A stretch of DNA of 64,000 nt, taken from positions 620,001 to 684,000 of the forward strand of contig NW_027191458.1 in the NCBI RefSeq assembly GCF_011745625.1. The letters run 5' to 3'. How positions within the stretch are numbered: the first letter of the stretch is position 1; each line of letters opens with the position of its first letter. The notes below the pieces were generated by a model that saw nothing but the letters and a program-made list of their open reading frames with translations, was not told the origin of the DNA and made no database searches. This DNA is from Cladosporium halotolerans. Its lineage: Eukaryota. Positions 16,726 to 22,646 of the stretch are shown piece by piece. The translations under genes were made by a program, and so were the position numbers.

Positions 16726-18164
16726 ATGACGGTCGCCGACAATACCCCACAGACGCCTCGTCTGGAAAAGGTATCATTTGAAAAAGCTTCCGCCTGCTCC
16801 GGATCACCTCACTAAACAAAACCAGGCACGGCATGTGAAATACTGGCTAAGATGTTTGAAAACTCTCTTACCCAGCATGTATACATCAAACGACTCAAAC
16901 CGCATGTACCTCGCCTACTTTATTCTCTCCGCCTGCGACCTGCTCGACATCATCAACACCTCAACATCACCAAAGGAGAGGCAAGAATGGATCGACTGGG
17001 TTTACTTCTGCCAGCATCCAGGTGGTGGTTTTCGAATGTGGCCCGGCACAGATTTTGGCGAGCGTGCGAATAGCGAGAATGCGAAATGGGATCCAGCAAA
17101 CATCCCTGCCACCTACTTCGCTCTAACCTCACTCCTTATCCTCGGAGACGACCTCAAGCGCGTGCACAGGCGAGAAACTCTACGCTGGGTTTACAAGATG
17201 CAAAGAGACGACGGCTCGTTCGGCGAGACCCTCGTAGAAGGCAAACAAGAAGGCGGCAGAGACCCCAGACTGGGCTACTGCGCCACCGGCATCAGATACA
17301 TTCTGCGAGGAGCAACCGAACCCGGCCCCATCATCATCAACAGCGAGTCGATACCCGACATCAACATCGACACCTACGTCAACTGCATCCGACTATCAGA
17401 AGTACGCCTCCCATCCCCCTCCCTCCACCCTCCAACCCAGCTAACACCCCCACCAGTCCTTCGACGGCGGCATCGCCGACGCGCCCTTCCACGAGCCCCA
17501 AGCAGGCTACACCTTCTGCTCGCTCGGCTCGCTCGCCTTCCTCAACCGCCTCGAAGCCGGGCACCTCTCCACCGCCCGCGCAAACCACGCCCCCTCGCGC
17601 CCCTCCGCCGCCGTCCGCTGGCTCCTCAGCCTGCAAACCGACTTCACAGACCCCGAAACCCCCCCTCCCCTCGCCCTCAACCTCCCACCCCCTCCCCCCA
17701 CGCCCTCAATCCAGCAACCCGCCCCAGCAGACCTGCACCAATCCCCCGACAAATCCACCATGTGGACCGGCTCCGTCCCCAACCTCGCCATCTGCCCCTC
17801 CCACCCCTCCTCCGCCCAACCAACCGGCCTCTCCGGCCGCCCCTCCAAGCCCGCAGACACCTGCTACGCCTTCTGGGCCGGCGCCTCGCTGGCCCTGCTC
17901 TCGCAACCGCTCCACGACACCCCCTCGCTCCGCGCGTACCTGCTCGCGAGCACGCAGCACCCCATCATGGGCGGCTTCAGCAAGTTCCCCGGCGACCGCT
18001 GGGCGGACCTGTACCACAGCTACTTGGGGCTGGCGGCGCTGAGTCTGTGCTCGAGCGCGGAGGAGAGGGAGGTTGATGGGGTCGCGGAGCTGGATGCGGG
18101 GATGTGTGTCGGTAAGGGGGTTAGGGGGAGGCTGGAGGGGGTTTGGAGGGGGTTTGAGAGCTGA
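16726..18164 (+). CDS. CDC43: Geranylgeranyltransferase type I beta subunit; exons 16726-16770, 16826-17401, 17457-18164
   Basis: LEK|ARHVKYWLRCLKTLLP..YTSNDSNR, prenyltransferase repeats, Zn ligands KPADTCYAFW and DLYHSYLGLAAL. Two canonical introns restore the frame. Confidence 0.85.
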
Positions 18165-18392
18165 TTTCTGGGAGGGGTTGTGCTGGGAGTGGATTGGAGG
18201 ATGGATTTTTGGGGTGGTTGGATGGGCGGAGGAGACGGGCGATTTGGGACGAGCGCGAGGACGAGAGGTGTTTTGCGTGCACAGGCGGAATTTGCAAAAG
18301 CATAGGATGAGACGAGAGATGAAAACGGACACGGAGAACTGTCGCACAAGCATAGCACAGCATAGCATAGCATACACCACCCTCTGTCAGAT

Positions 18393-19848
18393 CTACCTCC
18401 TCGCCTTCCTCCTCTTCACCTCCACTCCAGCTCCCGCCGACGCCCCTTTACTAACCGTCCTCCCAATCCCACCTCCACCGCCACCAACATACCTCCCCGC
18501 CTCCGGCAAAACCTGCACCCCCTGATCCTCACTGCTCTCCCCACCCCCACTGCTCTCCTCCTCGCTCTCCTCCCCAACCTCCTCCCTCAACCCACTCCCC
18601 TTCATCCTCCCGGCAGCGCCAGCGAAAGCGGACGAATCCCCCCACGCCAGCGGCGAGCTCCCCGGCGGCACGCGGCGCAGCGCGGCGAAATTGATCTCCG
18701 CTGGCGAGCCGAGGCTGCGGCGCCCCGGCGCGGCAGGCGAGGGCGGCATGGCGTTGGAAGCGGCGCGCGAGCGGCCGGCGGCCTGAGGCGGGGTGGGAGG
18801 CGGGTACCAGTCCTGGTCGTCGTGGTAGGAGCGGGAGGAGCTGGAGGAGCCCGGGCGGCCGCTGGGGCCGGGGCCGTGGTAGAAGCGGGGGGAGTATTGG
18901 GGCTGCTGGTGGGGGGCGTAGACGGGCTCGGGGGGCGTGGAGCCGCGGCGGGTGTGTTTTGAGGTTGAGCGGGAGCGGTCGCGGGTTGTGGGTGGGTGGG
19001 CGCGGGAGAGTTCGGGGCTGGGTGGTGGGTAGTAGGGCATGCCGGGGGCGTAGATTGGGTAGCCGTTGGGGCCGGCGACGATGTAGTTCTGCGGTGGTGG
19101 AGGGCCGGGGGAGAAGGGTGGTGGTTGGTCGGAGGAGACGGACATTTTGCGGCTGGACTTTGATTTCGACTTTGATTTCGAGGGCGGGGTTGATGGGCCG
19201 CCGCCGCCGCCGCCGAAGAGGCTGCTGCTCTTCTTCTTCCCCTTCGTGCTGGAGAGGCTGGCGGAGCTGTTGTTGCGGCTGCTGCTCTTGCCCTTGGACG
19301 TCTTGACCGGGGTCGCGGGAGGAGAGGCAATCTGCAGAGGCGGTGGGTGTACGGGCGCCGGCTGCTGGAATCCTCTCCTGCGCTCGAGCGCCTCCATCTC
19401 ATCCACCGACAGATTGATGTTCGTCTGTCCCGAGGCCCTGGCCTTTGCGATCCGCTCGTAAGCCGACTGCGCCAGTGCTTCCTCCCTCCCTCTGTATGCT
19501 GATCTTCCTCCCTGGTAGTATGCGTCCTCCTCCGACTCCCCTTCGCCGTAATATGCATTAGGATAACTTTCGCGCCGATGCTGCCCCGTGTCGTAACCGG
19601 TAAAATACAATTCGTCGCCGGCGAAACCGCGCTGGCGAGCGTCCCTGTAGGGGTATCCGTTGGGATCCAAATAAACGCCTTGTCCGTCATCTTCGTCACT
19701 CTCCATTTCTTCAAAGCGCTCGCCGTAATGACGAGCAGCCTCACGAAGCTCCCACTCTTGCGGTCTCAGCGATCTTCGCCCACCGCCTCCAAGGGTCACT
19801 CCGGGTGGTCTTCCCGTATCATAGGGCGAAGAGGGCGCGGCCGACCAC
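18393..19848 (-). CDS. Pro/Ser-rich ~485-codon frame, probably the frameshift-dependent C-terminal extension of YIP3
   Basis: Open frame from the splice acceptor (CAG 19851-19849) to stop 18393. First in-frame ATG is ~46 codons in. It lies in the +1 frame relative to YIP3 after splicing of intron 19901-19849. Confidence 0.75.
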
Positions 19849-19901
19849 CTGTGGTTGTCAGTGGTTGATTTGGACTTTCAAGAAATTCTCTCCAAACTCA
19901 C

Positions 19902-20432
19902 CTAGACCGCTTCCTCAGAGAAAGATGCTGCTACATCTTTATCCATGAGCGCAGCATGCCCGAGAATGCTGACGCCAGATGCACCGATCAGCCACAGAAC
20001 GGTGCTGATCGGAGAAGACCAAATGCCCAAGGGAACAGCGATGACCAGGAGACCGGTGTAGAGCTGGGAAGAAGTCGCGCGCGCGAATCCCACGTCGAGG
20101 TCGGCGCCCTGCAGCTTGCTGATACCGAACATGCCGCCGGCAACGAAGATGATGACGAACAGCATGAGCAGGTTGGTCAGCAGGCTGTAGATGCTGAGCA
20201 TGACGAAGACGACGGCATAGTTGCTGCTGAAGTAGGACAGGTTGTAGTTGACGCGGGTCTGGACCTCGCCGAAGTTCTGCGGCTTGGACAGGCGCTTGAG
20301 GTCGAAGAACTCGCTGAGCGGCTTGAGGTTGGCAAAGCGGCTGCCGATGCCCTGCGAGCGCACGCTGTCGAAGCGGCCCTGCAGGTTGAGCCGGCTGGTC
20401 AGGGCCTCGTAGGGGATGTTCATGGGAGCCAT
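19902..20432 (-). CDS. YIP3: PRA1-family Rab-GDI displacement factor Yip3 (short form, 176 aa)
   Basis: PRA1 motifs RVNYNLSYFSSNY and LGHAALM, two long hydrophobic hairpins, C-terminus FSEEAV*. Confidence 0.9.
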   Translation of the reverse strand: MAPMNIPYEALTSRLNLQGRFDSVRSQGIGSRFANLKPLSEFFDLKRLSKPQNFGEVQTRVNYNLSYFSSNYAVVFVMLSIYSLLTNLLMLFVIIFVAGGMFGISKLQGADLDVGFARATSSQLYTGLLVIAVPLGIWSSPISTVLWLIGASGVSILGHAALMDKDVAASFSEEAV

Positions 20433-21324
20433 CGTCTGCAGGGAGTGAAGCGAGCGGTGTTGCGCGGTGGCGTGTCTACCTTATTATGGCGGTTGTGTGC
20501 CTGGGATAGGGGTCAGTCTTCGACACGGCGCCAGTTTCACGTGCTGGAGGCGCTGCCGTCCGGCGCAAAGCCAGAGGGCCGCCGTGTGGCACAGCAGGCG
20601 CGGGTACGTACAGGACGTGGAGCGGGCAGGGGCGCTGAGCGAGCGAGTGGATGCGCGGCGGGGATAGCTGCGGCGTGGTATAGCGTCCGGAGGGGAAGGA
20701 GCCTGTTCGTGGTGGGCGCGAAAGGGGCGGACGTGTGGGAGGATGGCGTTTTTGGGTTTTTGGTGTTGCTGACGCCGCACGCGAGGCTTGTGGCCAGGGA
20801 ATGCGCGGATCCTCTCAATGGGGCCAGGGATGCGCCGTTGGCTGGCCCGCGCGCGCGATCCCGAGATCCCCTTGTGGCTAGCCTCAGCCTCAGCCTTACT
20901 GCCGGGCGGGCGTGCTGCTGCTGCTTGGCCGGCGCTGGCAGGGGGTGGAGGAGGCCGCGTGCAGCCTGCGGACGGCGGAGTGAGGTGTAGAGGAGGTGAA
21001 GAAAAGGACGACGGCACGCACGCGGCGCCTCGCCGGTGAAGCAGAAAAAAGCCAGCGGTATGCGGGCGGTGCGGGCTCGACAGCTGTCTTATTACTGCGA
21101 AACCGCATCGAGCTTCGCCGCAGCTCCCCACCGTTTCACGCGCGTAGCGTGCCACGAAGCGCCCGCCCAAGCGAGCCTAATCCGCCCAATCGCCCGCAGG
21201 GGAGAGCTGGCCTCGCTGGCACCGCCGCCAAAATAATGCTGCAACGTGCCAGCAGACGCAGACGCAGCGCCCAAGCAGCCCACCACCGGCCGCCTCCCTG
21301 CCCGCTCTCCTCCGCCCGCCAGCA

Positions 21325-22646
21325 ATGAATCTCCTCCTTCGGGCAGCCCTGCTGCTCGCCTGCCTGGCCGCCCTCGCCGCCGCCTGGTCCAAGGAGGACC
21401 ACGAGATCTTCCGCCTCAAGGACGAGGTCCAGGCCTCCGAGGGCCCCAATGCCACCTTCTACTCCTTCCTCGGCGTCAAGCCGTCCGCCGGCAACGACGA
21501 CATCAACAAGGCCTACCGCAAGCTGTCGCGCTCGCTGCACCCCGACAAGGCCCGCAGCAACTGGATCGCCGCCTACAATGCGCCCAAGCAGGGCAAGCCC
21601 AAGGCCGGCGCGAAGCCCACCACCCACGTCCACAAGAACAAGCAGCCGTCGCAGAGCGAGGTCAACCGCTTCATGAAGCAGGCCTCGGCGCGCTTCGAGC
21701 GTCTCAGCCTGGTCACCAACGTCCTCCGCGGCGCCGAGAGACAGCGCTACGACCACTTCCTGCACAACGGCTTCCCTGCGTGGAGAGGAACCGGTTATTA
21801 CTACGAGCGTTTCCGCCCCGGACTCGGCAGTGTCTTACTCGGCCTGTTCGTCGTCATCGGCGGCGGCGCCCACTACGGCGCCCTGTACGTCGGCTGGAAG
21901 CGCCAGCGCGAGTTCGTCGAGCGCTACGTCAAGCACGCCCGCCGCATGGCATGGGGCGACGACAGCAACCTCGCCAACATCCCCGGCCTCGGCGCCGGCC
22001 AGTCCAATGGCTCGACTCCCCGCCAGCAGACTCCCTCCGACAACGATGAGAGCATGCAGTGGAACAGGAAGCAGAAGCGCGCGATGGAGCGCGAGAAGAA
22101 GAAGAGCGGCAGCAACGGCGCGGCGAAGAACTCTCGCGCGGTCGAGAAGGCCAAGAACGAGGGCGTCAGCACGCCCGTCGAAGCCGAGCTGACCAGCGGC
22201 CCCGTCGGCGCGAAGAAGCGCACCGTGGCGGAGAACGGCAAGATCCTGATCGTCGACTCCGTCGGCAACGTCTTCCTGGAAGACGAGACGGAGGAGGGCG
22301 ACGTGCACGAGTTTCTCCTCGACGTGAGTTCAACCCACCAATCAACCAATCAACCAACGCACCCATCCACACTCGTCCACGCTGCTAACAAACCTCCCCC
22401 TCACAGCCCGAAGAAATCCCCAAGCCCTCCATCCAAGACACCTTCCTCTTCCGCGGCCCCAAGTACCTCTACAACAAGTCCGTCGGCCGCTTCCTCTCCA
22501 AGCAGACCGCCGACCACGTCGCGTGGGAAGCCAACGGCGAGCCCCTCGCCAGCGTCCCCGAGGTCTCCATCTCCGAGCCCTCGCTCTCCTCCGCCATCCC
22601 CGCCAACGCGCAGAGCGAGGGCCGCAGGCGCAAGATGAAGAGGTAG
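21325..22646 (+). CDS. ERJ5: ER-luminal DnaJ protein (ERJ5-like); exons 21325-22323, 22407-22646
   Basis: Signal peptide, WSKEDHEIFRL, J-domain with HPD (LHPDK), RYDHFLHNGFPAWRGTGYYY, TM segment. Intron GTGAGT..GCTAAC..CAG. Confidence 0.82.

Follow-up and report, generated by a model that had tools for sequence, protein, structure and literature searches.

How could ribosomes reach a long open reading frame (ORF) that begins behind the stop codon of another gene and out of frame with it? This question is raised by the YIP3 locus of Cladosporium halotolerans, on contig NW_027191458.1 of the assembly GCF_011745625.1 (positions 620,001 to 684,000; these 64,000 nucleotides are the window analysed here, and all coordinates below are counted from its first letter). 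On the minus strand of the window, the YIP3/PRA1 gene (ORF1, 20432..19902) is followed by a 53-nt intron and by a second frame (ORF2, 19847..18393), the Pezizomycotina-specific YIP3 extension, and the original prediction held that a likely programmed +1 frameshift joins the two. We consider it probable that the locus is a Cladosporium-like orthologue, Capnodiales being taken in the broad sense, of the two-ORF YIP3/PRA1 recoding gene, and that it is decoded by frameshifting as proposed. The two-ORF recoding arrangement and the +1 configuration of Capnodiales are already published (Malagnac 2013, PMC3777964), so that the novelty of the +1 arrangement is smaller than had been claimed, and the locus adds a further case. 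What goes beyond the text of that paper is an intron within the recoding pseudoknot, the conservation of this pseudoknot in +1 lineages and the proposal that the net +1 shift may come from a -2 slip.

ORF1 begins with the ATG at 20432 and encodes 176 amino acids, its 3' end reading ...TCT TTC TCT GAG GAA GCG GTC TAG, with the TAG at 19904-19902. Residues 32-171 match Pfam family PF03208 (141.2 bits, cut-off 30.1; E 2.2e-41), well above the curated cut-off of the profile of the PRA1/YIP3 prenylated Rab acceptors, and the naming of ORF1 as YIP3 is thus confirmed. ORF2 comprises 484 codons and a closing TAG (18395-18393), and the AGG codon that precedes it straddles the exon junction; the stop-to-stop frame that contains it has 494 codons, from 19877 to 18393. 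In unspliced DNA, ORF2 is in frame 0 with respect to ORF1, with a TAG and a TGA between them. Once the 53 nt are removed it lies in the +1 frame, which is closed upstream by a TAG (19933-19931), and any shift is confined by this TAG and the 0-frame TAG to the 29 nt from 19930 to 19902. The spliced 0 frame runs for nine sense codons past the ORF1 stop and then meets a TGA, while the -1 frame meets a TGA at once. The coordinates and frames originally given for ORF1, its stop, the intron and ORF2, the early end of the 0 frame and the limits of the shift window all held on re-reading of the sequence.

Splicing was seen in contigs from four sequencing runs of four studies. These runs carry no RNA label on record and their RNA nature was taken from the splice joints: since both skipped stretches are GT..AG introns, the contigs derive from spliced RNA. 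In all four runs position 19902 is joined to 19848 on the minus strand, skipping the 53-nt intron (19901..19849; GTGAGT at 19901, a branch-like CTGAC and a CAG ending at 19849), which starts directly after the ORF1 stop, and a 111-nt intron in the 5' untranslated region (5'UTR; 20611..20501, GTACGT...CTGAC...CAG) is likewise skipped in all four. Bin depths across the 53-nt intron are compatible with zero coverage, and spliced contigs bridge ORF1 and ORF2 in three runs (X3, X8 and X10). Among the joints listed for the four runs there is none beyond these two introns, and among the differences listed for the RNA contigs no base change or indel falls within 19902-19935. As far as contigs, which miss rare forms, can show, ORF1 and ORF2 share a single mature mRNA in different frames, with neither splicing nor editing to join them. 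The same TAG|GTGGTC junction as in the spliced window occurs in three intron-less relatives recovered from metagenomes (L005, L007 and L009), and L009 is transcript-derived, since the 5'UTR intron of its relative L001 is also absent from it.

A minor alternative splice form that fuses ORF1 and ORF2 in frame would make frameshifting unnecessary. Gene finders do build such fusions (the model P0008, for example, joins ...GASG to HLSLRKRSRW), rare isoforms are invisible in contigs, and in the related locus L014, as in the protein models P0026, P0036 and P0050, no stop interrupts the in-frame unspliced intron, and its retention there would be a direct fusion. In the window, however, a transcript retaining the intron still stops at the TAG and has an intronic TGA after it, just two joints are listed in the four runs, and the transcript-like L005, L007 and L009 share the same single junction. 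We looked for the alternative splice and found none with consensus signals: of 294 ways to bring the frames together with a single intron, none has a GTRNGT donor, a YAG acceptor and a CTRAY branch, the only one to pass looser rules costs about 85 residues of PRA1, and none of 45 possible second introns has a consensus donor or branch. We regard fusion by splicing as very unlikely.

The length of ORF2 alone is weak evidence that it is translated, because other frames of this GC-rich stretch also hold long ORFs (387 and 289 aa). Its coding nature therefore rests on homology, on dN/dS and on strain indels in multiples of three. We found 72 homologues of ORF2, and all those with a name come from Cladosporiales, Mycosphaerellales or related Dothideomycetes (Cladosporium, Meristemomyces, Recurvomyces, Friedmanniomyces, Hortaea, Zasmidium, Cercospora or similar genera), which are the Capnodiales in the older broad sense (Cladosporium itself is now assigned to Cladosporiales); by these homologues, the window belongs to the Capnodiales +1 group. 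With tblastn, ORF2 also reached loci in which the second frame is -1, at 31-36% identity, and Pfam holds no family for it. In comparisons with seven close relatives (dS 0.6-1.3 over both ORFs), dN/dS is 0.05-0.11 for ORF1 and 0.10-0.18 for ORF2, the latter at dS 1.0-1.3, and the strain differences within ORF2 in the RNA contigs include indels of 6, 6, 6 and 6 bases, each a multiple of three. ORF2 is a real coding region under purifying selection.

It could still be translated separately, by reinitiation or internal initiation at the ATG at 19706 or at a non-AUG codon, with no fusion protein. As originally noted, there is no start codon near its beginning, the first in-frame ATG being codon 48 (19706..19704). 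Gene callers begin many homologues at this methionine (90% query cover) and some lineages have an ATG elsewhere, at ...PYDMGRPPG, yet neither is conserved across lineages: the codon-48 methionine is not conserved outside the clade of the window, and its alignment position is mostly occupied by leucine or isoleucine in other lineages. Ahead of codon 48, 47 codons keep the reading frame, and their protein sequence is shared between lineages, including GRPPG and a motif of the DWELR type, which reads PQEWELR in the window and PQDWELR in its close relatives; codons 18-47 have a pN/pS of 0.22-0.58 in six of the seven comparisons. ORF2 is thus a 3' frame that is homologous to the Pezizomycotina extension and lacks a conserved start codon. 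Eukaryotic ribosomes reinitiate poorly behind an ORF as long as 176 codons, which also speaks against separate translation, and in Podospora the fusion protein itself was detected, according to the text of PMC3777964. We hold separate translation to be highly improbable.

The gene structure is missed by automated annotation, as had been foreseen. Sixteen of the 72 ORF2 homologues also carry PF03208, and the nine of these fused models that we inspected bridge the two ORFs by several different invented routes; the matches in the ESM Atlas are only to clusters named for fused gene models.

The closest known system is PaYIP3 of Podospora anserina, where, in the text of the original study, a 61.6-kDa form arises when ribosomes shift to -1 at U UUU UCC, a pseudoknot begins 2 nt downstream of the slip motif, and the arrangement is conserved in Pezizomycotina, with ORF2 in the +1 frame in eight species of Capnodiales and one of Ophiostomatales (Malagnac 2013, PMC3777964). 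A later review repeats this account in one passage (Atkins 2016, PMC5009743), and in the literature on YIP3 frameshifting and PaYIP3 we found no later study. The precedent to which the original prediction appealed therefore exists, although the Podospora shift is -1 and not +1. ORF1 and ORF2 of PaYIP3 are orthologous to those of the window, the slip motif falls at the same codons (about 170-172) and both genes have an intron in the 5'UTR, of 173 bp in Podospora (PMC3777964). The two genes differ in the frame of ORF2 (-1 in Podospora, +1 in the window), in the motif (UUUUUCC against UUUCUCU) and, as far as that text goes, in that there is no splicing between the ORFs of PaYIP3, whereas the window has an intron in the pseudoknot. 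The published Capnodiales configuration (e.g., Mycosphaerella graminicola) likewise has ORF2 in the +1 frame, with UUUUU changed to UUUCU; the text of the study describes just a small stem-loop there and no conserved pseudoknot, while both stems are kept in the +1 sequences aligned here, and it is silent on an intron between the ORFs and on a -2 shift (PMC3777964).

To follow the frame arrangement across relatives, we used the 28 loci obtained from a metagenome scan with an alignment of ORF2. Both the end of ORF1 and the start of ORF2 are present in 21 of them; the other seven (L004, L006, L011, L017, L020, L025 and L026), which lack the ORF1 end, were dropped from every junction count. Once any known or predicted intron is removed, 15 of the 21 have ORF2 in the +1 frame; the remaining six (L021, L022, L023, L024, L027 and L028), which carry GCU UUU UCA, have it in the -1 frame. 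Genomic loci of the clade of the window have an intron at the same place (50 nt in L001 and L002, which have identical junctions, 50 in L003, 56 in L008, 53 in L010 and 52 in L012), and other +1 loci have none (L013, L016, L018 and L019). In L014 and L015 an intron is predicted at other positions, and its removal restores the common mRNA (...EEAV-stop) and the +1 configuration. The 21 junction sequences were aligned and collapsed into 16 distinct rows, 13 of the +1 type and three of the -1 type, and the -1-type loci among L021-L028 served as stand-ins for Podospora in the comparison of the pseudoknot.

One H-type pseudoknot fits all 16 rows. In stem 1, GAGGARGCGG pairs with CCGC, a 3-nt bulge and CUCUUC, and in stem 2, (G)GUGGUC pairs with GACCAC(C). 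In the window, the 5' arm of stem 1 (GAGGAAGCGG) lies at 19916..19907 and is followed by loop 1 (UCUAG, 19906..19902), which contains the ORF1 stop and whose last G can form the first pair of stem 2. The 5' arm of stem 2 (GUGGUC, 19848..19843) is made of the first bases of exon 2, the 3' arm of stem 1 (CCGC, bulge GCC, CUCUUC) occupies 19840..19828 and the 3' arm of stem 2 (GACCACC) 19810..19804, all on the minus strand; the energy of stem 2 is -11.0 kcal/mol. The -1-type stand-ins share the two stems, the bulge of 3 nt in stem 1 and the position of the ORF1 stop within loop 1. All 16 rows form the four inner pairs of stem 1 as well as four of the stem 2 pairs. Among the compensatory changes in stem 2 are GGCGGUC/GACCGCC, GGUCGUC/GACGACC and AUGGUC/GACCAU, and in the Cercospora-like L019 both stems are perfect (10/10 and 7/7 pairs). 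Among the nine naturally intron-less rows, pairing occurs in 92.2% of cells, compared with 33-71% with slid partners, both sides have changed in 6 of 17 pairs, and the covariation score of 0.271 (0.156 in shuffles) was reached by none of 500 shuffles; our own pair counts on the 16 distinct rows agree with this test. By covariation, the slip motif is directly followed on its 3' side by a pseudoknot. An earlier stem 2 drawn by eye, UCUUCGCCC with GGGCGAAGA, was dropped, its 3' partner changing synonymously and without compensation in L001 and others. Rfam gave no match in L005, L018 or L021.

The synonymous-site conservation among orthologues that had been named as a check on the original prediction is also found. 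In eight sequences of the clade, none of 8.3 synonymous sites has changed in the last 11 codons of ORF1, against 0.45-0.54 changes per site in the rest of ORF1, and in codons 1-17 of ORF2 synonymous change is 0-0.07, against about 0.65 beyond codon 48. Both stems fall inside this island of conservation, as does the slip motif. Before splicing, loop 1 would measure 58 nt rather than 5, and because the intron sits at the 5' edge of stem 2, the compact pseudoknot is present, in the clade of the window, only in spliced mRNA.

Where within the 29 nt, and in which direction, would the ribosome slip? The site and the direction of the shift, like frameshifting itself, are what we infer for C. halotolerans YIP3, and the candidate site is UCU UUC UCU (19925..19917, minus strand), which belongs to the final 11 codons of ORF1, is invariant in the eight sequences and takes the place of U UUU UCA in -1-type loci, aligning with their GCU UUU UCA at about codons 170-172 as a U-rich slip motif. 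It is not a canonical -1 site (X XXY YYZ with a spacer of 5-9 nt and ORF2 in the -1 frame), given that ORF2 is +1. The last codon before stem 1 in the +1 rows is UCU, UCC or UUU, and a triplet read by the same tRNA lies two bases upstream in all 13 of them and in none of the three -1 rows; in the window, the triplet two bases upstream of the final UCU (19919-19917) is likewise UCU (19921-19919). Stem 1 has two additional base pairs in 12 of the 13 +1 rows: the pair 20-59, by which it reaches the slip site, is A-U in 12 of the 13 and A x G in all three -1 rows, and therefore the spacer shrinks from the 2 nt of PaYIP3 and the -1 type to 0 nt. All 13 +1 rows have a loop 3 that is 4 nt shorter than in the -1 rows, and this loss moves ORF2 from the -1 frame to the -2 frame, which is the +1 frame.

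The re-pairing of UCU with UCU beside a longer stem 1 suggests a -2 slip. Such a slip lands in the +1 frame and needs a triplet two bases back on which the tRNA can re-pair, and -2 shifting on the HIV U6A sequence was reported to be optimal when the spacer was 1-2 nt shorter than that for -1 shifting (Lin 2012, PMC3458567). A single-tRNA -2 slip at 19919-19917 would fit best, because of the re-pairing triplet, the spacer of 0 nt (stem 1 runs right up to the site in 12 of the 13 +1 rows) and this spacer optimum. Of the originally proposed likely +1 frameshift, the frame relation is thus supported, while the movement of the ribosome may instead be of two bases backwards. The window differs from the known cases of -2 shifting in that only one tRNA can re-pair.

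Another programmed -2 frameshift is that of arterivirus nsp2TF. To our knowledge, all -2 cases known so far are viral or artificial. Antizyme and prfB, in contrast, shift to +1 at a stop codon, and have in common with the YIP3 locus the net +1 shift, the 0-frame stop at the site and, in antizyme, a nearby pseudoknot. An event of this kind could take place at GUC UAG G, with a pause on UAG, the U skipped and AGG read across the exon junction. The UAG is within the permitted 29 nt, a 0-frame stop stands in the same alignment columns in all 16 distinct rows and a G follows it in 12 of the 13 +1 rows. The stop position, however, is equally kept in the -1 loci, which need none for shifting, and the codon before it is not slippery and varies by lineage (GUC, GUU or GUA, hence different tRNAs), none of these re-pairing at +1. 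The pseudoknot moreover starts 5' of the stop and encloses it, and by the time UAG reached the A site the ribosome would hold both stems, which would leave the pseudoknot without a role. We consider a true +1 event at the stop unlikely.

For frameshifting at the U-rich motif, the steps would be as follows. One mRNA, spliced at the 5'UTR intron and at the 53-nt intron, would carry ORF1 and, in the +1 frame, ORF2. Most ribosomes would terminate at UAG and give the short form, the Rab acceptor of 176 aa, and a minority would shift within 19930-19902 to give a form of about 662 aa (172 + 6 + 484 residues). The likeliest site would be U_UUC_UCU, immediately 5' of the conserved H-type pseudoknot, where the tRNA-Ser on the second UCU could re-pair perfectly two bases back, a -2 slip landing in the +1 frame. 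More tentatively, and with doubts that exceed our confidence, we propose that in the +1-type YIP3 of Capnodiales this slip of tRNA-Ser from UCU to UCU is driven by the ancestral pseudoknot, whose base may have grown by two pairs after the 4-nt loss in loop 3 had moved ORF2, and that in the Cladosporium-like clade splicing would complete the pseudoknot and so license frameshifting. If true, this would be a programmed -2 frameshift in a cellular eukaryotic gene. YIP3 is among the very few such genes with a conserved programmed frameshift of non-retroelement origin, and the locus offers a concrete candidate site in its +1-type branch; its putatively stimulatory pseudoknot has persisted through a change of frame, and an intron can lie inside such an element.

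Nevertheless, several observations weigh against decoding by a pseudoknot-stimulated slip at this motif. The Discussion of PMC3777964 describes the slippery motif as well as the pseudoknot as not conserved in Capnodiales, and the +1 case of this order is put forward in the text of that paper as a hypothesis. The spacer of 0-2 nt is far below that of classical sites, so that the pseudoknot would be partly melted while the slip codons are decoded, and the same text calls the very short spacer unusual. In folding energy, the spliced element does not stand out from shuffled sequences (-22.1 kcal/mol, z-score 0.02), stem 1 has one A x C mismatch in the clade of the window and also one G.U pair, and for its outer part the minimum-energy register reaches -16.4 kcal/mol, compared with -8.1 kcal/mol for the comparative register. 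The rows used for covariation are few (9 and 16) and mutually related, and contigs lose rare variants, minor splice forms being invisible to them.

Some relatives have unusual junctions. In the Friedmanniomyces-like L014 (L014:1560-1680), a 62-nt intron predicted from consensus signals lies eleven bases further upstream (GA|GTACGA...ACAG|AGAGG), an arrangement shared by the protein models P0026, P0036 and P0050. The predicted spliced RNA has SFSEEAV-stop and ORF2 at +1; the intron itself is open in frame 0 and unspliced RNA would encode a direct fusion of ORF1 and ORF2, so that this lineage could, judging from its sequence, make the long form without frameshifting, by intron retention. In L015 (L015:1925-2000), the signals predict a 61-nt GC-AG intron between GCG and GTA TAG. 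With that of the window clade, three intron positions fall within 14 nt of the recoding region, which may reflect repeated gain or intron sliding. The intron length is 3n+2 in five of six distinct loci of the window clade, a length at which ORF2 stays in frame 0 in unspliced RNA. We gave no weight to this: three of the five introns have an extra stop, and two or three indel events suffice. P0041, available as protein only, has an upstream ORF2-frame peptide (...VVFQKRRSRWSAAP) that implies a +1-type locus with no stop at the usual position and a U-run like that of -1-type loci (..UUY CAR..) in its slip region; if so, it would not fit the UCU-to-UCU re-pairing rule. L005 is 99.9% identical to L001 over ORF2 (L005:546-1449) and only 85.7% over ORF1 (L005:15-552). 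Its sequence may be a chimera, assembled from two strains with the join in the invariant recoding region.

The neighbours of YIP3 are both on the plus strand. Upstream and divergent lies a gene with a DnaJ domain (21181-22638; PF00226, E 1e-10). The convergent neighbour (16730-18076) encodes a prenyltransferase alpha-alpha toroid protein (PF00432, E 8e-43), and its open frame ends about 300 nt beyond the stop codon that closes ORF2 in the prenylated-Rab acceptor gene. A single spliced contig from run X3, 6.6 kb long, spans the whole examined stretch, and the 3' ends of the two genes may overlap. Right behind the ORF2 stop, a short imperfect tandem repeat with units TATGC/TGTGC occupies 18345-18383 on the minus strand.

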